Shown here piece by piece: positions 16,318 through 63,050 of a stretch of DNA of 64,000 nucleotides. Position 1 is the first letter of the stretch; every line of letters begins with the position of its first letter. The translations under genes were made by a program, and so were the position numbers. Below the pieces are notes generated by a model. It was not told the origin of the DNA. It did not search any database and saw only the letters and a list, made by a program, of their open reading frames with translations. The stretch is taken from IMG/VR virus record IMGVR_UViG_3300042260_000241. The stretch is one strand, 5' to 3'. Source of the DNA: a virus (Duplodnaviria > Heunggongvirae > Uroviricota > Caudoviricetes).

Positions 16318-16321
16318 AGAT

Positions 16322-16397: not shown

Positions 16398-16404
16398 GAT
16401 TTCT

Positions 16405-16479: not shown

Positions 16480-16485
16480 AGTTTT

Positions 16486-16762: not shown

Positions 16763-16768
16763 AAACAT

Positions 16769-16853: not shown

Positions 16854-16861
16854 AGTTTAAT

Positions 16862-16941
16862 GGACTTCTGGTATTAGCAGGGAAGTACGCCGTGGGATTA
16901 ATCCTTCGGAGGCGTTGGTTCAATTCCAACGAAGTCCACCA
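16862..16941 (+). tRNA. tRNA-like, anticodon undetermined (contains the GGATTAATCC palindrome; possibly Leu-type or a pseudogene)
   Basis: Good acceptor (ggacttc/gaagtcc), T-arm gttggTTCAATTccaac and CCA, but I could not find a canonical anticodon stem. Confidence 0.35.
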
Positions 16942-16981
16942 AGTTTACATTATATCGCATTTGTGGTATAATAAAGAATAT

Positions 16982-17057
16982 TCCGAAGTAGCACAGAGGT
17001 AGTTGCAGCGCACTGTTAATGCGCCTGTCGTAGGTTCGATCCCTACCTTCGGAGCCA
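16982..17057 (+). tRNA. tRNA-Asn(GTT)
   Basis: Anticodon stem gcgca/tgcgc, loop ctGTTaa, T-arm gtaggTTCGATCcctac, CCA. Confidence 0.7.
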
Positions 17058-17127
17058 AGTTTTAGAGTAGGTTCAGCAAATAAAAAGCATTCAACTTGTA
17101 ATTGAAAACGCAAAAACTACTCTGTTG
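17058..17127 (+). ncRNA. Y-RNA-like element B (reduced member)
   Basis: agtttt-AGAGTAG-gTTCAGCAAa ... aaaaa-CTACTCT-gtt, with an internal anticodon-arm-like hairpin ttcaa-cttgtaa-ttgaa. Confidence 0.45.
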
Positions 17128-17132
17128 TATTT

Positions 17133-17216
17133 GCCTAGGTGGTGGAATGGTATACACTCTGGTCTTAGAAGCCAGCGCCGCGAGGATTGAGAGTTCGAGT
17201 CTCTCCCTAGGCACCA
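17133..17216 (+). tRNA. tRNA-Leu(TAG)
   Basis: Type II. Anticodon stem ctggt/gccag, loop ctTAGaa, T-arm gagagTTCGAGTctctc, CCA. Confidence 0.7.
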
Positions 17217-17568
17217 TGTTTTGTAAGTGTCAGCAAGAGAAAGTCACGCTGGTCAACATTCTTCGAAGGTGTTGGTCAGTAGAAGGTAGCGGGTTCGATC
17301 CCCGTCCGATCGGAAGATCGGAATACAGTTGGAGTATCGTCTGGACTATTATCCCGAGTGACGTACCGAGTCCCGGCCGGCTTAATTACACGGGTGAATG
17401 GTGTCTATAACGATGGGGACACTACTTACAAATTCAATACTCGCCTTGACTGATGGCGTAGAGAAGGATAAATTGTCAGTCATCTTTTTAAAGCGTACTG
17501 CTGAAGTTGGTTCAGTTAGATAGGGAGATCCAATTGCCTATATCGTTAGTATGCTTTAAAAAGATTTT

Positions 17569-17643
17569 GGGGGCATGGCGTAATTGGGAACGCAGTAGCT
17601 TTGCAAGCTTCAGTTCGGGGTTCGATTCCCCGTGCTTCCACCA
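17569..17643 (+). tRNA. tRNA-Ala(TGC)
   Basis: Acceptor gggggca/tgcttcc, D-arm gcgtaattgggaacgc, anticodon loop ttTGCaa, T-arm cggggTTCGATTccccg, CCA. Confidence 0.6.
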
Positions 17644-17904
17644 AGAATACTAAGACAATACTCGGTACTGTGAGTAGATGGAAACCGACCCATGCGAGAC
17701 TGCGTGGGCTTCAATTACGCAGGCATTGGTAATTCTGTGCAGGTCAGATTGACGATGCGAAAGTAAGTCGGTCCAGTAGGGTCAGGAAAAGTATTGTCGG
17801 CGGAAAAAGCTGCCGGACGTCAGAAGTTAGATTCATACACATCGGTATCCATGGACCCGGTGGCAATTTGTTTCTAACGCCGTGTATACGTACAAGATTT
17901 TTAT

Positions 17905-17981
17905 GCCCCGTTAACTCAGTGGATTAGAGTACTAGGCTACGAACTTAGGAGTCGGGCGTTCGAATCGCTCACGGGGTGCCA
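17905..17981 (+). tRNA. tRNA-Arg(ACG)
   Basis: Anticodon stem ctagg/cttag, loop ctACGaa, T-loop TTCGAAT, CCA. Confidence 0.65.
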
Positions 17982-17987
17982 AACAAT

Positions 17988-18063
17988 GCCAATATAGCTC
18001 AGATGGTAGAGCAGCGGACTGAAAATTCGTGTGTCGGTGGTTCAATTCCACCTATTGGCACCA
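17988..18063 (+). tRNA. tRNA-Phe(GAA)
   Basis: D-arm tagctcagatggtagagc, anticodon loop ctGAAaa, T-arm ggtggTTCAATTccacc, CCA. Confidence 0.7.
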
Positions 18064-18067
18064 ATAT

Positions 18068-18150
18068 GCACATGTGGCGGAATTGGTATACGCGCATGGT
18101 TGAGGTCCATGTCCTTCGGGTTGAGAGTTCGAGTCTCTCCTTGTGCACCA
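18068..18150 (+). tRNA. tRNA-Leu(GAG)
   Basis: Type II. Anticodon stem catgg/ccatg, loop ttGAGgt, T-arm gagagTTCGAGTctctc, CCA. Confidence 0.6.
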
Positions 18151-18156
18151 AGTTTA

Positions 18157-18230
18157 CGCGGGTAGGGTGGTCACCACTGCAGTCTCATAAGCTCGCAGCA
18201 TCGGCGGTTCGAATCCGTCACCCGCATCCA
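18157..18230 (+). tRNA. degenerate tRNA-like with a CAT anticodon loop (ctCATaa) and a weak anticodon stem
   Basis: T-arm ggcggTTCGAATccgtc, acceptor 3' strand plus CCA, but only 3 bp in the anticodon stem. Confidence 0.3.
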
Positions 18231-18296
18231 GTTTTAGGATCCATTCAGCAATCTTAAAAATTTCACTGTTAATGAAACCAAAAGAGGATCCTGTTA
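18230..18296 (+). ncRNA. Y-RNA-like element C (reduced member)
   Basis: gtttt-AGGATCC-aTTCAGCAAt ... aaaaga-GGATCCT-gtt, with an internal hairpin tttca-ctgttaa-tgaaa. Confidence 0.45.
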
Positions 18297-18301
18297 TTTT
18301 T

Positions 18302-18376
18302 GGTGATATAGCATAGACGGATATGCAGGGCTCTCATAAGGCTCACAGGAAGGATCGTTACCTTCTATCACCACCA
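18302..18376 (+). tRNA. tRNA-Met/Ile2(CAT)
   Basis: Acceptor ggtgata/tatcacc, anticodon loop ctCATaa, T-loop ATCGTTA, CCA. Confidence 0.6.
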
Positions 18377-18391
18377 TATATAGAATATCAT

Positions 18392-18468
18392 CGGAGTGTA
18401 GCACAGCCTGGTAGTGCGCTTGCTTTGGGAGCAAGAGGTCCAAGGTTCGAATCCTTGTACTCCGACCA
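18392..18468 (+). tRNA. tRNA-Pro(TGG)
   Basis: D-arm gcacagcctggtagtgc (Pro-like), anticodon stem cttgc/gcaag, loop ttTGGga, T-arm caaggTTCGAATccttg, CCA. Confidence 0.7.
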
Positions 18469-18476
18469 AATTTAGG

Positions 18477-18749
18477 ATGAATATGATTGTTAACCCTTTG
18501 AAAAAGAATGTTCTGGTTGCAGAACGTAATCGTGAAAACACAACTGCCAGTGGAATAGTAGTACAAGGCGTTGAAGGTCTTGGTGAATCCAAGTCTGCTA
18601 AAGTTCTTGCGATTGGGCCAGACGTCACTGAAGTAAAAGTTGGTGATACTGTTTATCTCATGTGGAATAAAGCAAAGCTTGTTAAAGTCGATGGTGCACA
18701 ACGTGCTATCGTCGCTGAAGAAGACATTGTTGCTGTTTTAGAAGATTAA
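18477..18749 (+). CDS. co-chaperonin GroES-like protein (functional analogue of T4 gp31)
   Basis: MNMIVNPLKKNVLVAERNRENTTASGIVV...VKVGDTVYL...VDGAQRAIVAEEDIVAVLED follows the GroES/Cpn10 sequence pattern. Confidence 0.7.
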   Translation: MNMIVNPLKKNVLVAERNRENTTASGIVVQGVEGLGESKSAKVLAIGPDVTEVKVGDTVYLMWNKAKLVKVDGAQRAIVAEEDIVAVLED

Positions 18750-18751
18750 TT

Positions 18752-18827
18752 GCTGCTATAGCTCTAGTGGTAGAGCGCTTCCTTGGTAAGGAAGAGGTCA
18801 CTGGTTCGAATCCAGTTAGCAGCACCA
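18752..18827 (+). tRNA. tRNA-Thr(GGT)
   Basis: D-arm tagctctagtggtagagc, anticodon stem cttcc/ggaag, loop ttGGTaa, CCA. Confidence 0.7.
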
Positions 18828-18842
18828 TTCCAGGAGTTTTAT

Positions 18843-19031
18843 ATGAAAATGAGTGATGGCGGCAAGGGAAGTTCTCCTCGTCCTTATTCTGTAGATAAAG
18901 ATACATACGCATCTAATTGGGATGCTATCTTTGGTAAAAAGAAAAAAGAAGATAATACTGGTGTACAAAAAACCGAGTATTATGATATAATTTCTACTGA
19001 AGATTGCTTAACTGATAAAGACAAACAATAA
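18843..19031 (+). CDS. hypothetical protein
   Basis: A 62-aa ORF between tRNA genes. Confidence 0.35.
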   Translation: MKMSDGGKGSSPRPYSVDKDTYASNWDAIFGKKKKEDNTGVQKTEYYDIISTEDCLTDKDKQ

Positions 19032-19038
19032 AGATATT

Positions 19039-19121
19039 GCCCGAGTGGTGGAATGGTAGACACAGCAGACTTAAAATCTGCCGCCTTGTGCGTACCGGTT
19101 CGAGTCCGGTCTCGGGTACCA
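19039..19121 (+). tRNA. tRNA-Leu(TAA)
   Basis: Type II. Anticodon stem gcaga/tctgc, loop ctTAAaa, T-arm accggTTCGAGTccggt, CCA. Confidence 0.7.
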
Positions 19122-19173
19122 ATATAATTTGCATTGGTAGCACGTCGATGTATAAATAAAGATAGGAGGCACT

Positions 19174-19779
19174 ATGCATTTTATCATTTATAAGACTACT
19201 CACGTTCAATCAGGCAAATATTATATTGGGATGCATTCAACTTCTGATTTAGAAGATGGCTATCTCGGTAGTGGAAAATGGATAAAAGCTGCCGTGAAAA
19301 AGCACGGCAGAGACTCATTTGAAAGAGTAATTCTCAAAGAGCTATCATCATACGATGATATGAAGAATGAAGAAGCTAAAGTAATCAATGAAGAAGTTCT
19401 CAATGATCCGTTATGCATGAATATGATGCATGGTGGAAAAGGCGGCTGGAAAACATTGAATGATTCTGATTCTGCATATCAAAGACGAAGTGAAGCTGGT
19501 AAAAAAGCACACGAAGTTCATAAGCATTTAGTGAATAATCTTCAAAGAGGAAGTAATCAAAAGACTGTTTCTACGTTAAAAGAAAAATACGGCAATGATC
19601 ATTTTGCAAAATTAGGCAAAATGAAAAATGTAACAGATGAATACCGATCAAAATTAAGTAAAGCTCAATGCGGTATGAAAATGATAAACAATGGTAAAAT
19701 AAACACCTTTGTGAAAAAAGAAGAATTGAATGAATACTTATCTAAAGGATGGGTATTAGGAAGAATTAGATCTCAGTAA
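19174..19779 (+). CDS. GIY-YIG homing endonuclease (SegB-like, free-standing in the tRNA cluster)
   Basis: FIIYKTTHVQSGKYYIGMH ... YLGSG is a canonical GIY-YIG motif. T4 segB occupies the equivalent position in the T4 tRNA region. Confidence 0.8.
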   Translation: MHFIIYKTTHVQSGKYYIGMHSTSDLEDGYLGSGKWIKAAVKKHGRDSFERVILKELSSYDDMKNEEAKVINEEVLNDPLCMNMMHGGKGGWKTLNDSDSAYQRRSEAGKKAHEVHKHLVNNLQRGSNQKTVSTLKEKYGNDHFAKLGKMKNVTDEYRSKLSKAQCGMKMINNGKINTFVKKEELNEYLSKGWVLGRIRSQ

Positions 19780-19957
19780 GATAACAGCAGTCGTCGGGTC
19801 TCCAAAACCCTGAAGTGTTGGTGCAACTCCAGCCTGGGATGCCAAATAAAAGTTGTGTCGACGACTAATCTCGGTGCTCCCGTTCTCCCGAGTTAAAATG
19901 ACTGTTTGTGGTTCTCCCCTGACGAGATAAAGCAAAAAGTAAGACGGGGCCAAATAT

Positions 19958-20048
19958 GGAAACGTGGCAGAGTTGGTCTATTGCTCCAGCCTTGAAAACT
20001 GGCGACTCTTAATCGGGTCCGTGAGTTCGAATCTCACCGTTTCCGCCA
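19958..20048 (+). tRNA. tRNA-Ser(TGA)
   Basis: Type II. Acceptor ggaaacg/cgtttcc, anticodon loop ctTGAaa, T-arm gtgagTTCGAATctcac, CCA. Confidence 0.6.
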
Positions 20049-20054
20049 AAATTA

Positions 20055-20144
20055 CGAGGGTTGCCAGAGAGGCCTATTGGCGCATCTTGGAAAGGTGATG
20101 GTTGCGAAAGCGGCACGAGAGTTCGAATCTCTCACCCTCGGCCA
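20055..20144 (+). tRNA. type II tRNA, probably Ser(GGA) (anticodon loop irregular)
   Basis: Acceptor cgagggt/accctcg, long variable arm, T-arm gagagTTCGAATctctc, CCA. Confidence 0.4.
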
Positions 20145-20149
20145 ATTTT

Positions 20150-20229
20150 GTGTGTTTCGTATAAATGTTTAGGGCATCATTACATGAGGGTAAAACCTCC
20201 GGATGTGGGTTCGAATCCCACAACACACA
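20150..20229 (+). tRNA. atypical tRNA-like element without encoded CCA
   Basis: Perfect 7-bp acceptor (gtgtgtt/aacacac) and T-arm gtgggTTCGAATcccac, but the D and anticodon region is aberrant. Confidence 0.3.
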
Positions 20230-20231
20230 AT

Positions 20232-20319
20232 GGAAGATTAAACAGACTGGGTCTGTAACTGTTTCGAAAACAGATTGATCGCTTATGCGGTTGCAGTTCG
20301 ATTCTGCAGTCTTCCTCCA
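20232..20319 (+). tRNA. tRNA-Ser(CGA)
   Basis: Type II. Anticodon loop ttCGAaa, T-arm tgcagTTCGATTctgca, CCA. Confidence 0.55.
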
Positions 20320-20325
20320 ATAAGA

Positions 20326-21471
20326 TTAGAGAATATCAAATTCTGGATATATTGTTTTATATGATGTATTTGCAATTATATCAAATTGTTCTAAAAATTC
20401 TTTAGCACTATCCCAATTTGGGGTATCATATTCTAATAATTCTAATGCAGTTTGAATCAGAACCTGACTTCCTTCTATTTTAGAAGGATTTTTAAAGTTT
20501 TTTAATTTTTCTTTATAAATGTTTTTAACACTCTTTGGTAAATTACTAACTTGAAGAATATTGTCAAGTACTGGACTACTCATAATATGAGTAAACGCAA
20601 TACCAGTTATGCTCATTATTTCTTCTAATGTGGTTATGAGTTCTGGGATATATCCTACGTTTAAAAGACTTATAGTAGAATTTACACCATAGGAAAAATT
20701 TTTATTATTAGAAATATTATCGATGATGTTATTTAAGTCACAACCATGACGTATATAATCATTCACTATCTTATTGCCATCGATACTGAGATTTAATTGG
20801 ATCTTGCAATTTAACTCATTTAGAATAGCAATGATATTTTTATTTGGTTTAGTATAATTTGTAGAAAATGTTATTAGTCGCAATTGCGTTGATTCTTGTT
20901 TAATTAAATTAATTAAGTCTAAACAATCCGAATCTATGAGAGGTTCTCCTCCAGAAATAGTGATAGACACTACTTCTTTGAATGAACCTTTAAGCTTATC
21001 TATGTCAAAGCGATTATTTACTTCAGTAAAATTATATAGATTTTTTAAAAATATACTTTTCTTAGAAAGTTCTCCTAGTTTTGAACTAGAATATGGCGAA
21101 CACATTCTACATGCAAGATTACATGTATTTTTAAGAGATATATTAAATACTTTTGGAAAAGAGTTTGAATTTAGATCAACTGAAATGCCGTATTTAGTAA
21201 AGTCTTTATTCTTAAAAGAACGATATGAAAAAGTTGTATCAGGAACATTGCATGCTTCACAATTATGATTAATAGTATTGGAGATAATGTTTTTTCTTAA
21301 TGATTTAAACTCATCATCAGTCCATATCTTTATAAAAGATTCGACTGGACCTTCAAGTTTTTTATATTTGCAACATGGCGCAATAGTATTATTTTGAAGA
21401 TTTAGTTGAGCATGAAGCCAAGGTACTGCACATCGATTTCCATTTTCAATTAGATCATCTGTAGTTTTCAT
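20326..21471 (-). CDS. radical SAM domain protein
   Basis: CNLACRMC matches the CxxxCxxC radical SAM cluster motif and ITISGGEPLI is a SAM-binding motif. GC content is much lower than in the surrounding sequence, and the gene is on the opposite strand. Confidence 0.7.
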   Translation of the reverse strand: MKTTDDLIENGNRCAVPWLHAQLNLQNNTIAPCCKYKKLEGPVESFIKIWTDDEFKSLRKNIISNTINHNCEACNVPDTTFSYRSFKNKDFTKYGISVDLNSNSFPKVFNISLKNTCNLACRMCSPYSSSKLGELSKKSIFLKNLYNFTEVNNRFDIDKLKGSFKEVVSITISGGEPLIDSDCLDLINLIKQESTQLRLITFSTNYTKPNKNIIAILNELNCKIQLNLSIDGNKIVNDYIRHGCDLNNIIDNISNNKNFSYGVNSTISLLNVGYIPELITTLEEIMSITGIAFTHIMSSPVLDNILQVSNLPKSVKNIYKEKLKNFKNPSKIEGSQVLIQTALELLEYDTPNWDSAKEFLEQFDIIANTSYKTIYPEFDIL

Positions 21472-21520
21472 AAAATAAAAAAAAAAAAAAAATAAGTATA
21501 TAACATTATATATAGATCAT

Positions 21521-21595
21521 GCGGGCATGGTGCTAGTGGTAACACATAACTTTGCCAAAGTTAAGTTGCGGGTTCAATTCCCGCTGCCCGCTCCA
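21521..21595 (+). tRNA. tRNA-Gly(GCC)
   Basis: Anticodon stem taact/agtta, loop ttGCCaa, T-arm gcgggTTCAATTcccgc, CCA. Confidence 0.7.
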
Positions 21596-21608
21596 TTTAG
21601 GATTATGT

Positions 21609-21764
21609 ATGAACGAGTTAAATGAACACGGTGTTCCACTACATGCATGCAATGAGTATAGACATGATGAACATTGGTGGACATGGGCAAAATGGATTAC
21701 ACAAAATTGTAAAAGACTTGGTTCAGATGGACTGAACGTATATTACCAAAAGCCTGTACAATAA
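21609..21764 (+). CDS. hypothetical small protein
   Basis: A 51-aa ORF following the tRNA. Confidence 0.3.
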   Translation: MNELNEHGVPLHACNEYRHDEHWWTWAKWITQNCKRLGSDGLNVYYQKPVQ

Positions 21765-21789
21765 TTCGTGATTGTGGTATAATATAAGT

Positions 21790-22065
21790 ATGGTAAATGA
21801 TAAAGAACATGAAATTATGTCAATCACTCAGGAAGAATGTTCCGAAGTGATTCAAGCAATTAGCAAGATCAATCGATTTGGTTTTGATGGACGACATCCT
21901 GAAAAGACTTACAATAATCGTGAACATCTTGAGGAAGAAGTAGGAGACGTCTTAGCAATGATTGATCTTCTACTTGAGAATGAGATTGTGTCTTGGGCTA
22001 ATGTGAACAAGGCACGTAGAGCAAAGTTTGAGAAGCTCCGTCAATGGAGCACTATCATGGACTAA
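21790..22065 (+). CDS. MazG-like NTP pyrophosphohydrolase (small)
   Basis: EEVGDVL matches the MazG EExxE/D motif. An early promoter TATAAT lies at about 21776. Confidence 0.45.
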   Translation: MVNDKEHEIMSITQEECSEVIQAISKINRFGFDGRHPEKTYNNREHLEEEVGDVLAMIDLLLENEIVSWANVNKARRAKFEKLRQWSTIMD

Positions 22066-22070
22066 ATAAT

Positions 22071-22144
22071 GCGGGATTGGTATAGGGGTTGTGCCCTAGT
22101 CTTCCAAACTAGAGAGACCGGTTCGAGCCCGGTATCCCGCTCCA
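22071..22144 (+). tRNA. tRNA-Gly(TCC)
   Basis: Anticodon stem ctagt/actag, loop ctTCCaa, T-arm accggTTCGAGCccggt, CCA. Confidence 0.65.
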
Positions 22145-22168
22145 TTTAACTTTAACCAGGAGAAAGCA

Positions 22169-22300
22169 ATGAAACGAAAACTGATCGTCAAGCAGCGTAA
22201 CCGCTTCGTTGCTTTGGCACAATTCCGAAAAGCGGGAGTGCATCGCAAAACTAATAAAGCTTTGCGTAAATCACTCAACCAAGCTATTTTGGAAGTGTAA
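22169..22300 (+). CDS. small basic protein (possible bS21-like ribosomal protein fragment)
   Basis: A 43-aa ORF with a strong AGGAG Shine-Dalgarno sequence. FVALAQFRKAGV resembles the S21 FDVALRRFKRSCEKAGV segment. Confidence 0.3.
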   Translation: MKRKLIVKQRNRFVALAQFRKAGVHRKTNKALRKSLNQAILEV

Positions 22301-22366
22301 CTCAAAGGCTAGAGTACCCGGCTTTTAACCGGATAGTTGTGGGTTCGAGTCCCACCACTTCTACCA
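22291..22366 (+). tRNA. tRNA-Lys(TTT)
   Basis: Anticodon stem ccgg/ccgg, loop ctTTTaa, T-arm gtgggTTCGAGTcccac, CCA. Confidence 0.65.
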
Positions 22367-22510
22367 TATAGTTAAGTACATTTTGTCACTATCGTATGGG
22401 TAAGCCCATCAATCTCCCCTCAACACCGGAGTCGCGCTCGGTTCGTAGGGATCGGAATGGATTGAAATAGCTACCAGGCCTGACAACTTGGGAAATGTAC
22501 TTAACTATAT
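22367..22510 (+). ncRNA. long-stem hairpin element (family 2, copy 3)
   Basis: 17-bp inverted repeat TATAGTTAAGTACATTT / AAATGTACTTAACTATA flanking about 108 nt. It lies between the tRNA-Lys CCA and tRNA-His. Confidence 0.4.
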
Positions 22511-22587
22511 GGTGACTATAGTGTAAAGGTTCAGCACCTCGCTCTGTGAAAGCGATAGAATGGGATCGTTCCCCATTAGTTACCCCA
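22511..22587 (+). tRNA. tRNA-His(GTG)
   Basis: An extra G-1 opposite a C discriminator, anticodon stem tcgct/agcga, loop ctGTGaa, CCA. Confidence 0.7.
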
Positions 22588-22594
22588 TGAATAT

Positions 22595-22670
22595 GGATCC
22601 TTAGCTCAGCGGTACGAGCAACTCCCTTACAAGGAGAAGGTCATAGGTTCAATCCCTATAGGATCCACCA
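22595..22670 (+). tRNA. tRNA-Val(TAC)
   Basis: D-arm tagctcagcggtacgagc, anticodon loop ctTACaa, T-arm ataggTTCAATCcctat, CCA. Confidence 0.7.
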
Positions 22671-22778
22671 AGTTATAGGATAGGTTCAGCAAACCATAAC
22701 GCATGCGAATGGATCGCAATTTGACTTCTAATCAAACCTTGGGGGTTCAATTCCCTCTGCAAAACAACTATCCTGTTG
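22671..22778 (+). ncRNA. Y-RNA-like element D (tRNA-like member with T-arm)
   Basis: agttat-AGGATAG-gTTCAGCAAa ... aaaacaa-CTATCCT-gtt. Internally it has an anticodon-arm-like hairpin tttga-cttctaa-tcaaa and a T-arm gggggTTCAATTccctc. Confidence 0.5.
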
Positions 22779-22800
22779 AATACGAATACTCTACGAATTC

Positions 22801-22926
22801 GGAGATGTGATGTAATGGTAGCATAGCATAGCAAAAAACCAATTCTGTAAAGAATTGTTCCAGCATATTCTAAGCTCAACTTTGTAAAAGTTCTTGTCCG
22901 TGGTTCGAATCCCGGCATCTCCACCA
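22801..22926 (+). tRNA. tRNA-like gene with a ~50-nt internal insertion (two tgtaaa-loop hairpins)
   Basis: Perfect acceptor ggagatg/catctcc, D-arm, T-arm and CCA, but about 126 nt long. Confidence 0.35.
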
Positions 22927-22931
22927 ATTTC

Positions 22932-23006
22932 ATCTCTGTAGCTCAAAGGTAGAGCGCTGCTTTGACATAGCAGATACGGCGGATCGTTACCGTCCAGAGG
23001 TACCAT
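22932..23006 (+). tRNA. tRNA-Val(GAC)
   Basis: Anticodon stem ctgct/agcag, loop ttGACat, T-loop ATCGTTA, CCA. Confidence 0.6.
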
Positions 23007-23007
23007 G

Positions 23008-23085
23008 CGCTTGTGACGAAAACTGGTAAACGTGCTTGTCTCAAACACAAGATTTTGAGGGTTCGACTCCCTCCGAGCGCACCAG
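23008..23085 (+). tRNA. tRNA with anticodon CAA and a short variable arm (identity uncertain)
   Basis: Acceptor gcgcttg/cgagcgc, anticodon stem cttgt/acaag, loop ctCAAac, T-arm gagggTTCGACTccctc, CCA. Confidence 0.5.
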
Positions 23086-56293: not shown

Positions 56294-56308
56294 TATAAAC
56301 TTTTCATT

Positions 56309-56920
56309 ATGAAAATTGAAGAAATAGATTATTCGAAAATAAGTGCATATATTCCTGAGGTTTTACAAGCGTTCAACGGCAAACAAGCTTTGAACGCTTG
56401 TTCGCTAGAAGAATTTAGAGATGCATTTAGAGTTAACCAAATGCAGTGTAAAGCATGGTTATTAGACAATATACACTTCGTAAACAAAGAATCCAAGGTG
56501 TTGGTCATAGGATCATGGCTAGGTTTCACCTCGTATTGTCTTTATAAAATGGGATTTAACAATATAAGTGAGACAGATCCAGACGATAGACTTGAAGTTA
56601 TTGCTAATGCAATAAATTGTGTCAATGAAAATTTTATTCATCTGAATGAAGATGTAAATCATATTGATATTAGCCAATACGATTTAGTCATAAACACTTC
56701 ATGTGAGCATATTGAAGATAATACTTGGTTCTCTTTAATAAAACCAGGTGCAGTAGTAGTTCTTCAATCTACAAATTTTAAATGTGATGATCATGTAAAT
56801 ACTGTTGAAAGTATAGATGAGATGAAACACTTATATAAGATGAAAACCGTTTATGAAGATGAACTTAAGTTGAATGATATTTTCACACGATATATGCTAA
56901 TTGGTATTAAAGATGTATGA
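56309..56920 (+). CDS. hypothetical protein (possible class I SAM-methyltransferase-like fold)
   Basis: VLVIGSWLGFTSY is glycine-rich-loop-like. This is the first gene of the low-GC island. Confidence 0.3.
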   Translation: MKIEEIDYSKISAYIPEVLQAFNGKQALNACSLEEFRDAFRVNQMQCKAWLLDNIHFVNKESKVLVIGSWLGFTSYCLYKMGFNNISETDPDDRLEVIANAINCVNENFIHLNEDVNHIDISQYDLVINTSCEHIEDNTWFSLIKPGAVVVLQSTNFKCDDHVNTVESIDEMKHLYKMKTVYEDELKLNDIFTRYMLIGIKDV

Positions 56921-57560
56921 TATCTTTTTCATCTGTTACAATGAAAGTAACAGAATTGAGAATTGGAATAGAGTTGTAGAATTACACCCCAACGCAAAAA
57001 TGGTGTATGGCGTCACTGATATTGCAAAGGCTCATCTAAGATGTAATGAACTTTGTACAACTGAAAGATTCTGGACAATCGATGGAGATAATTGGTTGTT
57101 AGACAGTCTTGATGTTGATGAGTATGAAGAAGATCTTATATTCTTTGATGCAATAGATCCGATAGACAATTACGTTTCTACAATTGGTGGTGTTAAATTA
57201 TGGAAGAAAAATAGTTTCATTAACACTACAATGGATAAAGGTGATTTTTGCAAATTTGCAACAAAGACATATAAAGTAATTCACAAATCATTATCAATTC
57301 ACAGATATGACAATACTCCAGAAGAAGCGTGGAGACATACTTTTAGACATATTGTAAAGTCGTTAACTGGAATTATTAGTAAAGAAGTTTTAGAAGACAA
57401 TTTAAATCGTGCAAAAGAACACGAGCATCTAAATTCCCACAGTTATCGTGGATACTTAGATGCTCTTGAATATGTTAAAGAGTGCGGCGGTGATTTTACT
57501 AAGATAAATTTAATAAATGATTATGATTGGTTATCATTAAAATGCGCCAAGAAGGTGTAA
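56901..57560 (+). CDS. hypothetical protein
   Basis: ORF. Confidence 0.4.
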   Translation: MVLKMYDIFFICYNESNRIENWNRVVELHPNAKMVYGVTDIAKAHLRCNELCTTERFWTIDGDNWLLDSLDVDEYEEDLIFFDAIDPIDNYVSTIGGVKLWKKNSFINTTMDKGDFCKFATKTYKVIHKSLSIHRYDNTPEEAWRHTFRHIVKSLTGIISKEVLEDNLNRAKEHEHLNSHSYRGYLDALEYVKECGGDFTKINLINDYDWLSLKCAKKV

Positions 57561-58016
57561 TCTCCATTCCGTAGAACAATTCATTGCAGAATGTGTTTCT
57601 CTAGTATCTACTTTGTACGCATTTCCAACTGGCATTTCGAATAAACCGTGATCTTTAAATACAAAGAAACATTGTTCATTTGTCACTAATGGAATATGTA
57701 ATCTTGGTGAATCATCTCTATGCATCGAATAACATGATCTTGGTTTTAGCCACATTAGACGAGTACGTTTAAGACCAAACTCATTTATGATTTCTTCGAA
57801 TATGCTATTTTTGAAGAATGGATTGAGAATACATTTAGACCAATCGTCAGATGGTTTCATTCTTCCAACAGCATCTGACCATGGATCGTTATTTAAATAT
57901 TGTAATCCCGCTTGCCTACCATTAGGATATTCAGTCCACTGAATATCCTTTTCTACATTTGTATATGCATTCAAAAGTGTAGAATGATCTACACTGCCCA
58001 TAATTTTAAAAATCAT
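57537..58016 (-). CDS. cupin/AspH-like 2OG-Fe(II) oxygenase (paralog 1)
   Basis: MHRDDSP gives HxD and THSAMN gives the distal His. Confidence 0.45.
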   Translation of the reverse strand: MIFKIMGSVDHSTLLNAYTNVEKDIQWTEYPNGRQAGLQYLNNDPWSDAVGRMKPSDDWSKCILNPFFKNSIFEEIINEFGLKRTRLMWLKPRSCYSMHRDDSPRLHIPLVTNEQCFFVFKDHGLFEMPVGNAYKVDTRETHSAMNCSTEWRLHLLGAF

Positions 58017-58017
58017 A

Positions 58018-58551
58018 TTATTCTTCGACTATAGTTGCAGTTATTTGAGTCAAATCGTCGTTTTCAATTATAGAATTCCATAAAACATTAATTGGCACAT
58101 TTATAACTAATGCCATCACCGGTTCTTTAACATGTGTAGAACTTATAGAAGACGTATCAATTGCAATAGGTTGATCAATTACAATTTCTTCTTTAACATA
58201 TAGTGCTTTTAACAATTGTTGATCAGCATCTTTGGATGGCACGTCAGCAAAATCATATGTTTTTAGTATCATTTGTGGTGTTTCAACAAGTGGAAGCATG
58301 ACGAGTGCACTATTTTGTTCCATTATATGAGGAGCAGATGATGCAACCAGTTCTACCAGATAGATAGAATCTACAACCTTTGGCACAAATGGCAACTGAT
58401 CTAACACATGATTAATTGCAGGGTTTGATAGATCTAATTCATTTAAACTTGCTTTTTGTATATAATTTTTTATTGATTTTTCTTTACTAATATATAAATC
58501 TATCAATGCCTGTTTATCGTAATCGATATTGACACGTTTATATCCTGACAT
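58018..58551 (-). CDS. hypothetical protein
   Basis: ORF. Confidence 0.4.
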   Translation of the reverse strand: MSGYKRVNIDYDKQALIDLYISKEKSIKNYIQKASLNELDLSNPAINHVLDQLPFVPKVVDSIYLVELVASSAPHIMEQNSALVMLPLVETPQMILKTYDFADVPSKDADQQLLKALYVKEEIVIDQPIAIDTSSISSTHVKEPVMALVINVPINVLWNSIIENDDLTQITATIVEE

Positions 58552-58593
58552 GGCAAATTCCTTTCGGTTAACTTAATTCTATATTTATAACAC

Positions 58594-59193
58594 ATGAACA
58601 ACTACATAAAACCTCTAAAATTAGACTTAGACTACGAATATTTGCTAAATTTAGCGTTAAATACTCTTTCTAAAAATACCATTTCTGGTACATACGACAT
58701 TAAAGGAATTGCAAAATGTGAAGATGATATATATTTAACATCTATAAGAAATATTTTTCCCTGTCTTAGTCCGCAATTTACAATTTTAAGATACAAACAA
58801 AATCAAGGTCTTCCAGTTCATATTGATAAAGCTAGAAATTGTACATTAAATATTCCACTAGCGAACTGTGAAAATACTATAACTACATTTTATGAAAATA
58901 TTGACTCTCGTGAATATGATATAAGTGATCATCCTGCTGGAAAAAGTGGTAACATTATAGTTATAAAAAATAAATTGGATGAAGTATTTAATTTTACTAT
59001 GATAACACCCGTATTATTTAATACATCTATACCGCATAGTGTTATGAACTATGGTGAAAAAGAAAGAATTATGTTAACTTGGCCTCTAACACTGAATTAT
59101 ATGTTTGAAACTGCAATTGATATATTTAATGACGATGCTGCAAGTGCTTTAACACCTTTGAAACATTCTCTGAATTCATCGGTACATTCATGA
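58594..59193 (+). CDS. cupin/AspH-like 2OG-Fe(II) oxygenase (paralog 2)
   Basis: VHIDKA gives HxD and PHSVMN the distal His. Confidence 0.45.
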   Translation: MNNYIKPLKLDLDYEYLLNLALNTLSKNTISGTYDIKGIAKCEDDIYLTSIRNIFPCLSPQFTILRYKQNQGLPVHIDKARNCTLNIPLANCENTITTFYENIDSREYDISDHPAGKSGNIIVIKNKLDEVFNFTMITPVLFNTSIPHSVMNYGEKERIMLTWPLTLNYMFETAIDIFNDDAASALTPLKHSLNSSVHS

Positions 59194-59839
59194 TTAAATG
59201 AATACTATCTGATGTCCAACTTATAGTTCTATGAGTTTTACGTGTATTTACGTAGTAAACTCTACCCGGTTCTATTATGAGTTTCTTATCTGTTTCCATT
59301 ATCCAATCATATTGTAATGGTCCACAATTATTCAAAAATGCAACTAATCTGAATGAATTTCTTGGTATTGACGGATGATCTCTGTGCGGTAGAAAGTAAC
59401 CACCAACACCAGAATTAATTAAGAAAGTTCTTCCAAGTGGAGAAAACTCTTCTAAAACATTTGTTAAGCTATAACACGCATTATATACTTCCGTTGGTTG
59501 ATTAAACTCTAATTCTGTTACATGTCTACCAAGTTCTGCAATCGCTTGTGCTTGACTGGGATTATCTTTGTGAGTTTTTCCGGGAAGATTCGTTAAAGAT
59601 AATGCTTTCCTATTATTATGAATATGCGGTCTTGGTAAATAGTCAACCCATTCATTTTCAAACTTAGATATTTCATTCATAAATTGTGAAGTATCTATTT
59701 TAAAATCCAATGGTTCGCAATCACCTAGATTTAATAACGCTAATTCATTTGCAACAGTTTCTAAATTTACATTATTAGAATCGTATTGCACAGGGCGTTG
59801 ACTTATTTCGTTTGGTTGTACTATAGTATTTGTCATCAC
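59126..59839 (-). CDS. cupin/AspH-like 2OG-Fe(II) oxygenase (paralog 3)
   Basis: HRDHP gives HxD and THRTI the distal His. Confidence 0.45.
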   Translation of the reverse strand: MMTNTIVQPNEISQRPVQYDSNNVNLETVANELALLNLGDCEPLDFKIDTSQFMNEISKFENEWVDYLPRPHIHNNRKALSLTNLPGKTHKDNPSQAQAIAELGRHVTELEFNQPTEVYNACYSLTNVLEEFSPLGRTFLINSGVGGYFLPHRDHPSIPRNSFRLVAFLNNCGPLQYDWIMETDKKLIIEPGRVYYVNTRKTHRTISWTSDSIHLIMNVPMNSENVSKVLKHLQHRH

Positions 59840-60519
59840 ATTATTCCAGTATCAATTAAATCATTTTTATAAAAAGCCCAAGCTCTTTCGCAGCACTGCC
59901 AACAGATACCACATCTAGTTGTTTTTGATGCAGTACACGTATGGGTTATATTTGGTATATCCAATAAATTTAAATCTTTTATAAGCTTTACAGTATCTGC
60001 TTTACTATAATCCCAGAATACGTCAAGTATTCTTTTATGGTTTGCTTTTATACGTTTTGGTCCATTGTAAAAACTTCCATCTGCATCTATAAATCTATCA
60101 TATTCATAGTTTGGTAATAACTCTGGTGGATCTAAACTTTCAGGATTTTTTGTTATAGCAGTCAGTGCTAAATCAAATTCATATTTCTGAATTGCTTCTA
60201 TTACTCCAGATTTAACCTGAGAAGAGTGATGTCCATCGCCAGTTCCCACGAATATTATATCAGAGTCTTTTAGTCCAAAAGTCTTATCAATATAGTTTAC
60301 TATTCTTTTTGCATGTAATTCAGAATCATCGGGTCTTTTTACACAGAAGTATTTTATTTCAACGTCTACATTAAGTTTACGTTTTGTATCTTGTAATAAA
60401 TATGCTAATAGAGTCGAATCAATTCCACCCGATATGAAAACGCCTATTATTTTATGCGTTTTCACGATATCTTCTATAATTTTTAGTATCATGGTATAAT
60501 AATGAGAAATGAACAACAA
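59836..60519 (-). CDS. PP-loop ATPase (QueC/ExsB-like)
   Basis: VFISGGIDS matches the SGGxDS PP-loop. A C-terminal Cys cluster CGICWQCC is present. Confidence 0.5.
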   Translation of the reverse strand: MLFISHYYTMILKIIEDIVKTHKIIGVFISGGIDSTLLAYLLQDTKRKLNVDVEIKYFCVKRPDDSELHAKRIVNYIDKTFGLKDSDIIFVGTGDGHHSSQVKSGVIEAIQKYEFDLALTAITKNPESLDPPELLPNYEYDRFIDADGSFYNGPKRIKANHKRILDVFWDYSKADTVKLIKDLNLLDIPNITHTCTASKTTRCGICWQCCERAWAFYKNDLIDTGIM

Positions 60520-61266
60520 ATTTGTAATATAAAAAGTAGGATTAGCGATCCATATGCTATTTCTGACTTTTTATCTAATGATGATATACAACATTTAATA
60601 GAACTTTATAAATCATATCATGTTAAAGTTCACAAAAATACAGGACCAATTGTACTTGACTTGAATCATGTATTTGACGATCACGTAATTTCAAAAATTC
60701 TTCATAAGATACAGAACGAAATTGGACTATATGAAATAACTTCTGCGTTTTTCTTTGAAACGACATACCCGCACGTTATCCATAATGATGATTTAATTCA
60801 GTTACCTAATGGTATATATAAGGCTATTACAATTCCATTAGAGATTAAACGTGAATACGAATCAAATGATTTTCCAAAGTTATGTTTCTTTGATCAGTTT
60901 TATTTTCACGGTCCATCTAAGTTTTTTAAAAATAGTGAAAATGATAATATCAAAGTTCATTATAATAAAAGTGTTTATGATTATAGTCAAATAGATGGCA
61001 TCTTAAACGATAATGTGATAAATGACGATACATACCAAAAGCTTTTTACACATATAAAACCAAAATGGTTAGAAGGTCTTAGTTTACATTCAACATTAGA
61101 ATGGAAACCAACAACAGCTTTGATATTTGATAGCACTAGATTGCATGCGGCAAGTGATTTTAGAAAACTTGGAATAACATCTAAGATGGCTATAAGTGTT
61201 TTTACTACTATATCATCAGAAGAAAAGATAAAATATATTGATTTAAAAGAGGTGCAAGATGTTTGA
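60502..61266 (+). CDS. hypothetical protein (possible fourth cupin oxygenase)
   Basis: HVIHNDD ... RLHAASDF. Confidence 0.3.
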   Translation: MRNEQQICNIKSRISDPYAISDFLSNDDIQHLIELYKSYHVKVHKNTGPIVLDLNHVFDDHVISKILHKIQNEIGLYEITSAFFFETTYPHVIHNDDLIQLPNGIYKAITIPLEIKREYESNDFPKLCFFDQFYFHGPSKFFKNSENDNIKVHYNKSVYDYSQIDGILNDNVINDDTYQKLFTHIKPKWLEGLSLHSTLEWKPTTALIFDSTRLHAASDFRKLGITSKMAISVFTTISSEEKIKYIDLKEVQDV

Positions 61267-61972
61267 ATGGACTTTTAGAAAAGCAGCAATATTCCAAATT
61301 GGCATGACACTAAGTTTACCAATTGCGTTTATGTATTTAGATGTAAGTTGGTTGGTGCTGTCTTTATTTGTTTTTTGGAGTTTTTCTTTAGCAACTACTG
61401 TAGGTTTACATAGACTTTTTGTTCATAATACATATAAGACTTCAAGATTTTGGCATTGGGTTTTAGGTTTAACAAGTTGTTTATCTATGACATCTAGTCC
61501 TATACAGTGGGCTGTTGCGCATTACACACATCACAAATATAGTGATACTGATAAAGATCCTCATAATGCAAGTCTTGCGCGAATATTTGGCATTGCGTAT
61601 TTTTCAAATGCAAATTACGATTTTACTAGAGCTAGAAGACTTATGAAAGATAATATGCATCGCTTCTTATTTAAATATTATTTGTTAATTCCTATCGTTT
61701 GGACTACAACATGGTATTTGATAGGCGGAGTTTCTGCTGCATATTTTTCATGGGCATTTCCAGCTGTGATATATATGTGGGCAAGTGCAATACATACAAG
61801 ATTATCACACCAAAATAAAAGAGCAGTAAATATGCATCCATTGTTTGTGTTATTGTTTCTTGGTGAACATTTGCATAGAGATCACCATGATACTCCAAAT
61901 TTGCAAAATTACGCAACTGAAAAAGGACAGATTGATCCTGGATATTGGTTAATAAAGTTGATTAGACAATGA
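61259..61972 (+). CDS. membrane fatty-acid desaturase/hydroxylase-like di-iron protein
   Basis: Histidine boxes HRLFVH, HYTHHKY and HRDHHD, plus predicted transmembrane helices. Confidence 0.55.
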   Translation: MFEWTFRKAAIFQIGMTLSLPIAFMYLDVSWLVLSLFVFWSFSLATTVGLHRLFVHNTYKTSRFWHWVLGLTSCLSMTSSPIQWAVAHYTHHKYSDTDKDPHNASLARIFGIAYFSNANYDFTRARRLMKDNMHRFLFKYYLLIPIVWTTTWYLIGGVSAAYFSWAFPAVIYMWASAIHTRLSHQNKRAVNMHPLFVLLFLGEHLHRDHHDTPNLQNYATEKGQIDPGYWLIKLIRQ

Positions 61973-62688
61973 CAAGAGTTAAATTGACAGTAGGATGGTT
62001 TTTGTTTTCTTTGATAACATTTCCATTTTTAGCATATTATAATTTTGATCCAGCATTAGCAATACTGGGTGTGTTGTGGGCGTGGCTAGTATTGATTATT
62101 GGTCAAGTTTTAGCAGCACACCGATATTTTGTTCATACGTCATTTGAAGCAAATTGGTTTCAACAGTTTATTATGAATTTCATGTTAACTATTGGATTTC
62201 AGGGTACTTCACAGGATTGGATAATATCACACAGTTATCACCACAAACATTCAGATACTGATATTGATCCAACTAATATTAAAGTGATAGGATTTTTCAA
62301 GAATTATACTAGTCTTTGGCAATTACATTCGCCAGTTGATGCAGGTGGAATACGATTAAGTCTTAGAAGTTTGCAAAATCCATTAACTAAATTTTTTCAT
62401 AATAACTATTATGTCATTTGGATATGCTGGGCTTTATGTTTAAATCTAATATCGTTTGAAGTGTTTGTATGGTTTTTCTTTTTGCCAGTCATATTTAGTC
62501 ATTGTTTTATGAATTTGCAAAATCATTTAGGTCATAGATCTAATGTAAGTTATGTTATTAATACTTTAGCGCCCGGAGATGGTTATCATAGGTATCATCA
62601 TGAAAATCCAAGAGAATATAAATTCGGTGAGTATGATATGATTGCTTTTTTGATAAAACATCTTTTTAAATCAAAGGGTGTACATTAA
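61969..62688 (+). CDS. membrane fatty-acid desaturase/hydroxylase-like di-iron protein (tandem paralog)
   Basis: Histidine boxes HRYFVH, SHSYHHKH and HRYHHEN. Confidence 0.55.
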   Translation: MTRVKLTVGWFLFSLITFPFLAYYNFDPALAILGVLWAWLVLIIGQVLAAHRYFVHTSFEANWFQQFIMNFMLTIGFQGTSQDWIISHSYHHKHSDTDIDPTNIKVIGFFKNYTSLWQLHSPVDAGGIRLSLRSLQNPLTKFFHNNYYVIWICWALCLNLISFEVFVWFFFLPVIFSHCFMNLQNHLGHRSNVSYVINTLAPGDGYHRYHHENPREYKFGEYDMIAFLIKHLFKSKGVH

Positions 62689-62715
62689 ATCGCATTTGGT
62701 TTATAATATAAAGAA

Positions 62716-62779
62716 TTGTTGTAATCCCTTCAAAGCGAAGGACTTCTGGACGCGGGTTCGACTCCCGCCATCTCCACCA
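62716..62779 (+). ncRNA. ssrA: tmRNA (ssrA) acceptor piece of a circularly permuted two-piece tmRNA
   Basis: T-arm gcgggTTCGACTcccgc, then acceptor 3' strand catctcc, discriminator A and CCA. The 5' partner ggggatg is encoded about 90 nt downstream. Confidence 0.55.
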
Positions 62780-62867
62780 AAAGCACATACATCGCTTGTC
62801 ACTTGAAACACTGCGATGGTACAGATGATAGTAGTGAAGTAATATCTGCTTAATGTGTGCTTTTGAT

Positions 62868-63035
62868 GGGGATGCCATGGTTTCGACAGAGGTAGATAGT
62901 AGAGACGGCAGCACGAGAGTTGACCGACGTAATCGGCAAAATCAAAGTAAACGCAAACGATGAAGTTTACGCATTGGCAGCTTAATCGCTGACTAGGGTT
63001 CGATGGGTTCCTCGTAACAGAATACCCATCCTTTA
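62868..63035 (+). ncRNA. ssrA: tmRNA (ssrA) coding piece
   Basis: The 5' end GGGGATGCCATGGTTTCGACAGAGG matches the tmRNA GGGG..GG.TTCGAC signature. The tag reading frame ends ...GCAAACGATGAAGTTTACGCATTGGCAGCTTAA, encoding ANDEVYALAA followed by a stop codon. Confidence 0.6.
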
Positions 63036-63050
63036 ACCAAAGGATCTATT

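Follow-up and report, generated by a model that had tools for sequence, protein, structure and literature searches.

What do the genes of a low-GC (guanine plus cytosine) island in an aquatic phage genome do together, and on what do they act? The island lies at positions 56300-62700 of a 64,000-nucleotide (nt) stretch, IMG/VR record IMGVR_UViG_3300042260_000241 (the whole of which we call the window), from a T4-like freshwater myophage assembled from metagenomes. We observed that the GC content of the island, 0.311, was the lowest among all 6.4 kb segments, as compared to 0.395 in the rest of the window and 0.357 in the next-lowest non-overlapping segment of that size. A first-pass annotation had described a low-GC block of about 6.4 kb, with genes on both strands and tight or overlapping junctions, and had seen in it an accessory modification pathway rather than core phage machinery. 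The base composition and the layout of the open reading frames (ORFs) agree with that description, the accessory nature of the block is supported, and the pathway idea fits the conserved co-occurrence of its modules across many phages. Our preferred answer, which we give tentatively and with somewhat less than even confidence, is that the island forms a modular cassette for oxygen-dependent tailoring, whose target would be a host envelope amphiphile, either a single one or a connected set. The cassette is very unlikely to make modified DNA bases.

The ten ORFs of the island (A to J) are the following.

A, 56309..56920, plus strand: a 203-residue soluble Rossmann-like protein with a methyltransferase-like motif I (VLVIGSWLG...ETDPD), paired with B.
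B, 56913..57560, plus strand: a 215-residue protein, probably a divergent GT-A/GT2-like glycosyltransferase (IFFICYNESN ... DGDN, with the DxD motif).
C, 57537..58016, minus strand: a 159-residue predicted Cpz10-like Fe(II)/2-oxoglutarate (2OG) hydroxylase of the AspH superfamily, assigned by Pfam, profile and triad.
D, 58018..58551, minus strand: a 177-residue degenerate cupin paralog of E that has lost the triad, directly upstream of C.
E, 58594..59193, plus strand: a 199-residue cupin of a multicopy phage family, with a predicted Fe(II)/2OG triad H76/D78/H148 and R158.
F, 59126..59836, minus strand: a 236-residue predicted Cpz10-like Fe(II)/2OG hydroxylase with an N-terminal extension, immediately downstream of G.
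G, 59836..60492, minus strand: a 218-residue PP-loop ATP pyrophosphatase with a QueC-type zinc ribbon.
H, 60502..61266, plus strand: a 254-residue soluble phage-specific protein with H94-x-D96...H215 and K228, at the head of the unit H to I to J.
I, 61259..61972, plus strand: a 237-residue predicted membrane di-iron desaturase of the stearoyl-CoA desaturase (SCD)/DesC type (delta-9 family).
J, 61969..62688, plus strand: a 239-residue paralog of I with the full set of metal ligands.

The contents first listed for this block stand for the genes that were named, but A and B (56309-57560) had been overlooked as members of the cassette, and D as a degenerate member of the E family. The ORFs fall into five short units (A to B; D to C on the minus strand; E alone; G to F on the minus strand; and H to I to J), and their junctions overlap or nearly abut. 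A overlaps B, B and C converge with a 24-nt overlap, and D is spaced 1 nt from C. The divergent genes D and E are 42 nt apart, the convergent genes E and F share 68 nt, and in the remaining units G overlaps F by 1-4 nt, H overlaps I by 8 nt and I overlaps J by 4 nt. Hydrophobic membrane segments were seen in I and J only, and the remaining island proteins look soluble in the hydropathy scan.

We estimated the ratio of nonsynonymous to synonymous substitution rates (dN/dS) against a collinear relative, IMG/VR UViG_3300047299_000082, which shares 85% nucleotide identity and covers the eight genes A to H (I and J lie beyond the end of its contig). The values ranged from 0.055 to 0.24 (F, 0.055; B, 0.063; A, 0.074; C, 0.117; and D, 0.24, the most relaxed gene of the block) and were comparable to those of flanking phage genes; these eight genes are under purifying selection. 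A scan for sigma-70 promoters found fewer sites than expected by chance, and the T4 late-promoter motif TATAAATA was not enriched, with 5 occurrences in the window, equal to the chance expectation. A late-promoter-like TATAAATA is present at 58582-58589 on the minus strand, in the D/E intergenic region, about 30 nt upstream of the start codon of D.

In eight related T4-like loci, we observed that the cassette was always placed between phoH and gp59/gp32, which is a hypervariable region. A, B, C, F, G and H were present in exactly one copy each in 8/8 loci, while the copy number of D/E varied and desaturases were found in four of the eight. Alternative accessory genes elsewhere among these loci encode a class IV aminotransferase, an AMP-binding domain, two Trp-type halogenases, extra 2OG oxygenases and a TctC-family binding protein. 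The modules also recurred beyond this clade, between homologs that are merely 21-35% identical and on unrelated backbones that include jumbo phages. Locus L020 has a same-strand run of G-like, F-like, B and A genes in that order. Ralstonia jumbo phage RsoM2USA has gp134 (G-like) followed by gp135 (F-like) at one locus, and gp348 (B) followed by gp347 (A) at another. In L053, L058 and L140, one of which is from a 355 kb jumbo-phage contig, A is followed by G and two desaturases, and in Pelagibacter phage Mosig an F-like gene precedes a desaturase inside a larger cluster of tailoring enzymes.

Aquatic viromes are rich in phage desaturases and AspH-like oxygenases (there are at least 542 phage desaturase loci in IMG/VR), and we counted the neighbours within a 7 kb radius at the best 80 of these loci. 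Another island family was present at 52 of the 80: D/E at 33, F at 24, C at 19, H at 10, A at 9, B at 3 and G at 2. H and F were adjacent in nine unrelated loci of this set, and tandem desaturase pairs were found at 23 of the 80. Per 10 kb, there were 2.2 cupins close to the desaturase and 0.6 farther away (a 3.7-fold drop), and the cupin density peaked in the gene immediately beside the desaturase. The linkage of the modules exceeds mere genome sharing.

These neighbourhoods also bear on the possibility that there is no shared pathway, and that a hyperplastic region has gathered independent auxiliary genes. In that case, the desaturases would tune the fluidity of the membrane, the oxygenases would differ in their targets, G, A and B would serve unrelated purposes, and the co-occurrence would reflect shared insertion hotspots and phage lineages. 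The composition does vary among close relatives (desaturases in 4/8 loci, with alternative accessory genes elsewhere), there are five units on both strands, and the families differ widely in their spread. G-like genes are also found alone, or in tandem between the genes for ribonucleotide reductase (RNR) subunits, and AspH-like genes and desaturases were each already known as common in aquatic T4-like phages. However, the pairs G+F, B+A and H+F and the set A+G+desaturases recur at 21-35% identity on unrelated backbones, jumbo phages included, six families are strictly single-copy and syntenic in 8/8 loci, and the cupin density peaks immediately beside the desaturase. We consider independent genes a rather unlikely explanation, albeit still a live rival, and the tailoring cassette remains our preferred one.

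One of the related cassettes differs in its accessory set. At L015 (3454-9269), two Trp-type flavin-dependent halogenases (E=3e-86 and 5e-78), a class IV aminotransferase (6e-36) and a truncated AMP-binding domain are found directly beside the H homolog, where they replace the desaturases. A carrier protein was looked for beside the AMP-binding and aminotransferase genes of L015 and was not found.

The first-pass annotation had proposed two tandem membrane desaturase paralogs with three histidine boxes, and this was borne out. I matched Pfam FA_desaturase (PF00487) with E=9.4e-12 (45.7 bits, as compared to a gathering score of 29.7), and the profile of the desaturase family matched mouse SCD1 (4YMK) with E=1.1e-22. 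J by itself had no Pfam match; it is 25% identical to I over 217 residues (E=1.5e-13). The three boxes and an extra histidine (HRxxxH, HxxHH(x3)D(x3)D, H184 and HxxHH) were invariant in the family alignment of I. In seven sequences, which include J and Mosig_00080 of the Pelagibacter phage, this corresponds to the invariant residues H51, H56, H88, H91, H92, H184, H206, H209 and H210, and the SDTxxDP-type D96 and D100 were also invariant. A simple hydropathy scan gave 2-3 hydrophobic segments each in I and J, four transmembrane helices being expected of the class. From these signatures, I and J are predicted to be paralogous delta-9 desaturases of the SCD/DesC type. They would constrain one substrate of the cassette to a fatty-acyl chain at the membrane.

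When expressed in yeast, DesC-like desaturases of cyanomyophages showed delta-9 activity on C16 chains (PMC5776448). I and J resemble these enzymes (vFAD-I and vFAD-II) in being predicted SCD/DesC-type membrane di-iron desaturases with the same His-box signature and in being auxiliary genes of T4-like aquatic phages. Unlike the vFADs, they form a diverged tandem pair, they are short (237-239 residues), they belong to a probable betaproteobacterial phage, and they are found inside a cupin/PP-loop cassette.

We further examined the cupins. C matched Pfam Asp_Arg_Hydrox (PF05118) with 27.7 bits (gathering score 22.6), and the profile of the C family matched Cpz10 (PDB 7V4F) with E=1.9e-20. The triad H99/D101/H142 of C was invariant in 8 sequences, and H99/D101/H142, R152, H107 and H154 align with H115/D117/His, R170, H123 and H172 of Cpz10. 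F gave no Pfam match by itself, nor in one per-member scan of its family, and PDB profile searches with a shallow alignment of F and with D/E gave nothing significant. An exhaustive search extended the F family to 188 clusters. In an alignment of 83 sequences, H152 and H203 were invariant and D154 was conserved in more than 90%, and 16 of the 83 members matched Asp_Arg_Hydrox. The deep profile of F matched L-proline cis-4-hydroxylase (2e-8), Cpz10 (3.5e-6) and proline 3-hydroxylase (1e-5) in the PDB. An AlphaFold2 model of F (predicted local distance difference test score, pLDDT, 93.4) has the double-stranded beta-helix fold as predicted by the model, and its best Foldseek match was Cpz10 (template modelling (TM) score 0.78, E=2e-9), with proline hydroxylases, AspH and PHD2 ranked lower.

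E and D belong to one family, which has 23 members across the 8 loci. The H-D-H triad was kept in 17/17 E-type members and R158 in 16 of them, with a Q in the seventeenth. Pfam gave only a weak match of E to Asp_Arg_Hydrox (E=0.1), and the D/E family profile was homologous to that of the F family (hhalign 94%, E=9e-8); the F family was in turn homologous to C when deep profiles were used (hhalign 95%, E=2.6e-8). D joins the family by iterated search, and it has H-M-S-V at the triad columns in place of H-D-H-R. The triad was lost in 6/6 D-type members (the D of the window included), and a D-type gene was found directly upstream of C in 7 of the 10 T4-like clade loci examined. D is probably non-catalytic and is probably translationally coupled to C. 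The final 20 or so residues of E, which overlap F, were not conserved in the 85%-identical relative (L002), and the functional end of E is probably earlier than annotated. The 68-nt convergent overlap of E and F (59126-59193) stems from this C-terminal tail (…AASALTPLKHSLNSSVHS).

C, E and F had each been proposed as AspH-like 2OG oxygenases with an HxD…H pattern. The evidence agrees with this for C (Pfam and Cpz10 matches), for F (deep profile and fold match) and for E (the triad and the homology to F), and we conclude that these are three intact predicted Fe(II)/2OG oxygenases of the AspH/Cpz10 cupin superfamily. When the metal residues were checked on alignments with Pfam and profiles, the triads of C, E, F and H were conserved. 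The term paralogous, which had been applied to these cupins, holds for homology at the superfamily level as detected with deep profiles, but it overstated their closeness, since BLASTP all-against-all found no link between the cupins. Shallow 8-sequence profiles gave weak hhalign signals between them, and the homology was seen only with the deep ones. As judged by these profiles, the cupins are distant members of a superfamily and not close paralogs.

Cpz10 is a non-heme Fe/2OG beta-hydroxylase that acts on an aminobutanoyl-glycyluridine intermediate of caprazamycin (PMC9814697). C and F are predicted to have the compact cupin fold of Cpz10, they have its HxD...H triad, and C also has the 2OG-binding Arg and the two extra His residues of the second-iron path of Cpz10. 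Unlike Cpz10, the phage genes lie outside a nucleoside-antibiotic cluster, the identity is under 20-30%, and F has an N-terminal extension of about 75 residues.

This likeness raises the possibility that A, B, C, E, F, G and H make or modify a small soluble molecule of amino-acid or nucleoside origin in the style of secondary metabolism, through hydroxylation, ATP-dependent amidation, glycosylation and methylation, while I and J provide a lipid tail (as in liponucleosides and lipopeptides) or have a separate role. The match of the C profile to caprazamycin Cpz10 fits this explanation, as do the best fold and profile matches of F, which are Cpz10 and free-proline hydroxylases. The sole plasmid homolog of C is found in a Streptomyces nonribosomal peptide synthetase (NRPS)-polyketide synthase (PKS) cluster, directly upstream of the NRPS and together with PKS and ATP-grasp ligase genes. 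Related cassettes contain the two Trp-type flavin halogenases, the class IV aminotransferase and the AMP-binding domain, distant loci contain many radical S-adenosylmethionine (radical-SAM) enzymes and a short-chain dehydrogenase/reductase, and all the cupins and G are soluble. However, no NRPS, PKS, cyclase or carrier protein was found in the window or its relatives, and the halogenase and aminotransferase genes are accessory, being present only in some relatives and not in the window. The distance-dependent association with membrane desaturases would also need a separate explanation. A soluble product is the main rival to our preferred answer and a live one, although we give it a good deal less than even weight.

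The cupins might also hydroxylate proteins, such as host translation factors, ribosomal proteins or virion proteins, in the manner of AspH and the prolyl hydroxylases. The fold of F does resemble AspH and PHD2 or bacterial P4H (which hydroxylates EF-Tu), the Pfam family is named after the Asp/Asn beta-hydroxylase, and the translation-related transfer-messenger RNA (tmRNA) and tRNA genes are nearby. But the small-molecule hydroxylases match best, with AspH and PHD2 lower (TM 0.27-0.55), no tetratricopeptide repeat or other substrate-docking domain is present, and G, B and the desaturases would be left unexplained. A protein target is, in our estimate, the least probable of the explanations considered here.

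For the envelope-tailoring cassette that we prefer, a different comparison is relevant. LpxO (a lipid A 2-hydroxylase) and OlsC (an ornithine-lipid hydroxylase) belong to PF05118, and the phage cupins are like them in this family membership and in the predicted Fe(II)/2OG chemistry. Both enzymes act on membrane lipids, and such lipid action would explain the link between cupins and desaturases. Unlike the phage cupins, which are soluble and 159-237 residues in length, LpxO is membrane-anchored and has about 300 residues.

G had been described as a PP-loop ATPase with a QueC-like C-terminal Cys cluster, with the further suggestion of deazapurine (preQ0-type) metabolism. The description proved correct. 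The SGGIDS loop (residues 21-26) was present in 19/19 family members, as was the cluster C186(x7)C194xxC197xxC200, a variant of the C(x)8CxxCxxC zinc motif of QueC; homologs of G form 23 clusters. The Pfam QueC match (PF06508; 32.7 bits) is confined to the last 56 or so residues, and the model of G (pLDDT 89.8) is predicted by Foldseek to have a generic PP-loop fold, with Cap9 and QueC as the nearest folds.

The deazapurine suggestion was not supported. A 2026 survey of the QueC family gives YxQxHxxE, VPxRN and YPDC as the substrate-pocket motifs required for preQ0 synthesis (PMC13329287). Neither these motifs nor their Cap9 variants were found in any of the 19 G-family members. On the QueC equivalog model TIGR00364, G scored 26.2 bits against a cutoff of 150.3, and eight distant G-like proteins scored 20-36 bits. 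We also looked for FolE, QueD, QueE and TGT/DpdA among ORFs of at least 100 residues at 1-38 kb, among called genes at 39.8-64 kb and in about 9 kb of the source contig (Ga0485316_000033) past the island, and found none. As G is without the pocket motifs and below the cutoff, and as no partner gene is present in the window or the flanks examined, we reject the assignment of G to QueC and preQ0 synthesis at this locus. G is a phage-specific branch of the QueC fold and not QueC, and it is predicted to be an adenylating, amide-forming enzyme that acts on a carboxylate.

Repurposing of the QueC family has already been described (PMC13329287). G is nevertheless unlike QueC and the defence proteins Cap9 and QatC (PMC13329287; bioRxiv 10.1101/2025.04.06.647259), since it is without YxQxHxxE, VPxRN and YPDC, of which Cap9 keeps variants. 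It also differs in being phage-encoded and paired with a cupin hydroxylase, with no TGT, FolE, QueD or QueE partners found. A role of G in countering Cap9 or QatC defence was also considered, but G has none of the pocket motifs that persist in Cap9. The G branch should not be annotated as queuosine or deazapurine biosynthesis, and this matters for surveys of DNA modification in phages.

We also considered whether the island could modify nucleic acid, either phage DNA or tRNA, with G as a QueC-like deazapurine enzyme or another base-adenylating enzyme, and with the oxygenases, B and A decorating the base. T4-like phages commonly glycosylate their DNA. The nearest folds of G are Cap9 and QueC, it has the zinc ribbon of QueC, distant G-like genes are found beside ThyX and radical-SAM genes or between RNR genes, and the window has 32 tRNA genes and a tmRNA. 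Against this, the pocket motifs of QueC were absent from all the G members (0/19) and the score was 26 against a cutoff of 150, with no FolE, QueD, QueE or TGT/DpdA in the window or flanks examined. The cupins are of the AspH/Cpz10 branch and not of the TET/JBP or AlkB type, and nucleic-acid chemistry has no place for membrane desaturases, which are nevertheless the neighbours seen most consistently. A nucleic-acid target is very unlikely.

Some distant G-like genes have other surroundings. A distant G-like gene at L059 (3571-12736) and L063 has ThyX and five separate radical-SAM genes at its flanks, with B-like and A-like genes upstream; the ThyX match has E=4e-43, and the ThyX stop overlaps the G start. 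These neighbours hint that some branches of the G family work in a differing, possibly nucleotide-related context. Tandem G-like pairs were observed at L049-L052 (6965-8241) and also at L029, L030 and L057. The pair at L049 sits between the RNR alpha and beta genes, which is a slot for SAM decarboxylase in HTVC-type pelagiphages. The context of the tandem pairs was uninformative.

B and A form a pair of their own. The B of the window and 120 close homologs had no Pfam match, and a profile search of B against the PDB gave nothing significant. B has homologs in at least 126 clusters, none with a Pfam domain. Its D61-G-D63-N64 was invariant. A tandem-domain homolog of B in L058 (552 residues) passed the gathering score of Pfam Glycos_transf_2 (PF00535) over the N-terminal half of one of its B domains, DxD included. 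As this distant homolog passes that threshold over the B domain, B is probably a divergent GT-A glycosyltransferase. A adjoins B homologs in RsoM2USA (gp347/gp348) and in L020, L091, L099 and L134. A search of A against the PDB gave a weak match to a phosphoethanolamine N-methyltransferase (E=0.03) over the motif-I-like VLVIGSWLG, and no methyltransferase model in Pfam or NCBIfam matched A or 10 distant homologs. A might be a methyltransferase.

H had been listed as a possible fourth cupin. Its HxD…H triad is indeed invariant, but no significant profile or PDB match was obtained. The H family has 479 homolog clusters, none with a Pfam domain, and H94, D96, H215 and K228 were invariant down to 21% identity. 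The strand LIFDSTRLH of H resembles the second-His strand of 2OG oxygenases, and PF05118 was matched weakly by two of eight H members (0.048). Comparison of H with the F, C and D/E families by hhalign gave 0.4-3.4% probability, which is not significant, and two attempts against the PDB gave nothing significant, the best oxygenase match having E=0.8. H may be a 2OG oxygenase. Outside phages, H was found at 3 loci on 2 contigs of metagenome-assembled genomes (49-57% identity) among 185,579 species genomes; these contigs are probably viral, and H is essentially phage-specific.

In our preferred reading, the substrate of the cassette enzymes in the infected cell would be a host envelope amphiphile, or several connected ones. 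Double bonds would be introduced into fatty-acyl chains at the membrane by I and J, and for this step alone is there an experimental precedent from phages. Hydroxylation of the acyl chain, or of an amino-acid-like or sugar-like head group, would fall to the soluble cupins, by analogy with LpxO and OlsC. G would use ATP to activate a carboxylate for amide formation, a sugar would be attached by B, and A might serve as a methylating enzyme. The outcome would be a remodelled membrane or cell surface that favours the phage, for instance by altering the fluidity of the membrane, excluding other phages or delaying lysis.

Several points weigh against such a cassette. Lipids are not the substrates of the nearest characterised relatives of C and F, which instead hydroxylate an aminoacyl-nucleoside (Cpz10) or free proline, and the sole bacterial plasmid homolog of C is in an NRPS-PKS cluster. 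No acyltransferase or lipid-carrier enzyme is present in the cassette, and the roles of A and H are tentative. The spread of the families is very uneven (23 clusters for G as compared to 479 for H), and since the composition of the cassette also varies, a single fixed pathway is unlikely. Finally, adjacency is weaker evidence here than in bacteria, because phage genes are always tightly packed.

A stronger form of the same idea would be a so far unrecognised multi-enzyme pathway shared among many aquatic phages, from T4-like to jumbo, in which the G ligase, the Cpz10-like hydroxylases, the GT2-like transferase, H and the paired desaturases build or rewrite a specific amphiphile. We regard this form as doubtful. 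If it were true, the molecule might be an aminolipid that has been hydroxylated, amidated or glycosylated, a variant of lipid A, or a product of the lipo-amino-acid or liponucleoside kind; phages would then be directing envelope chemistry of a new class, and the QueC scaffold would have gained a new function.

Among the closest described systems is a cluster of pelagimyophage Mosig EXVC030M (genes 72-90; PMC7029224), where a homolog of F (34% identity) is directly upstream of an I/J-type desaturase. The Mosig cluster also contains methylases, aminotransferases, radical-SAM enzymes and a second cupin. Unlike the island, it is without G, B, H and the D/E expansion at that locus, and it lies beside tail-fibre genes, as against the site between phoH and gp59/gp32 seen here. 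An Asp/Asn beta-hydroxylase has been reported as core to all pelagimyophages, and a stearoyl-CoA desaturase as present in the freshwater ones (PMC7029224). The component types are thus each known in aquatic T4-like phages, while their combination is undescribed in the literature that we searched. In that literature we found no description of the phage-specific G branch or of its pairing with an F-type hydroxylase, nor of the B+A pair, the H family, D as a degenerate partner of C, or the recurrent co-location of these modules with desaturases. Among these phage genes, only the cyanophage desaturases have a tested function. The hypothetical genes of the island can now be viewed as defined candidates through which a phage may remodel the lipids or metabolites of its host, and each of these candidates can be tested by experiment.

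The island was also compared with other phage sequences. When the island and the flank to its left were compared by megablast with 50,697 phage records, no relatives at the DNA level turned up among annotated phages, and a PHROGs search of the island gave only a QueC-like match for G and a family of unknown function for I. A 166.8 kb contig from the Joint Genome Institute (JGI) is 99.7% identical to the window over 51.3-63.0 kb, and it continues downstream of the island with gp59, gp32, baseplate, DNA-packaging and tail-tube genes. The rest of the window has ordinary T4-like nucleotide metabolism (RNR, NAD salvage, ligase, RNase H and Seg endonucleases).

A tmRNA gene abuts the island at 62667-63039 (plus strand), where it overlaps the final 22 nt of gene J and encodes the tag peptide ANDEVYALAA. 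The tmRNA is permuted (of the two-piece type) and scored 161 bits on the betaproteobacterial model of Rfam. From this score, the host of the phage is probably a betaproteobacterium. TctC-family (Bug-type) solute-binding and TctA transporter genes are present in related cassettes (L009, 3460-4389; L020, 13106-14560); these families are typical of Betaproteobacteria and are consistent with the host inferred from the tmRNA. The similarity of the window to the JGI contig stops at 63024, at the 3' end of the tmRNA, and beyond it each of the two encodes a different SleB-like Hydrolase_2 protein. This suggests that the tmRNA gene marks a boundary of mosaic recombination.

The 32 tRNA genes form an array at 13737-23084 (plus strand) that covers nearly every amino acid. 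Two unusually long tRNA calls (94-95 nt), Ser(gct) and Ile(tat), are found back to back at 14359-14554. On the opposite strand within the array, 20326-21471 (minus strand) encodes a 381-residue twitch-domain radical-SAM protein, which is not QueE (NCBIfam NF033640, 197 bits as compared to a cutoff of 170). Pfam families at 1-38000 of the window include NAMPT/NAPRTase, NUDIX and a cytidylyltransferase-like protein, which make up an NAD salvage set, as well as a rubrerythrin/ferritin, a dual-specificity phosphatase and two SegE-type GIY-YIG homing endonucleases. The same region has an additional 2OG oxygenase outside the island (2OG-FeII_Oxy_5, E=1.4e-18).

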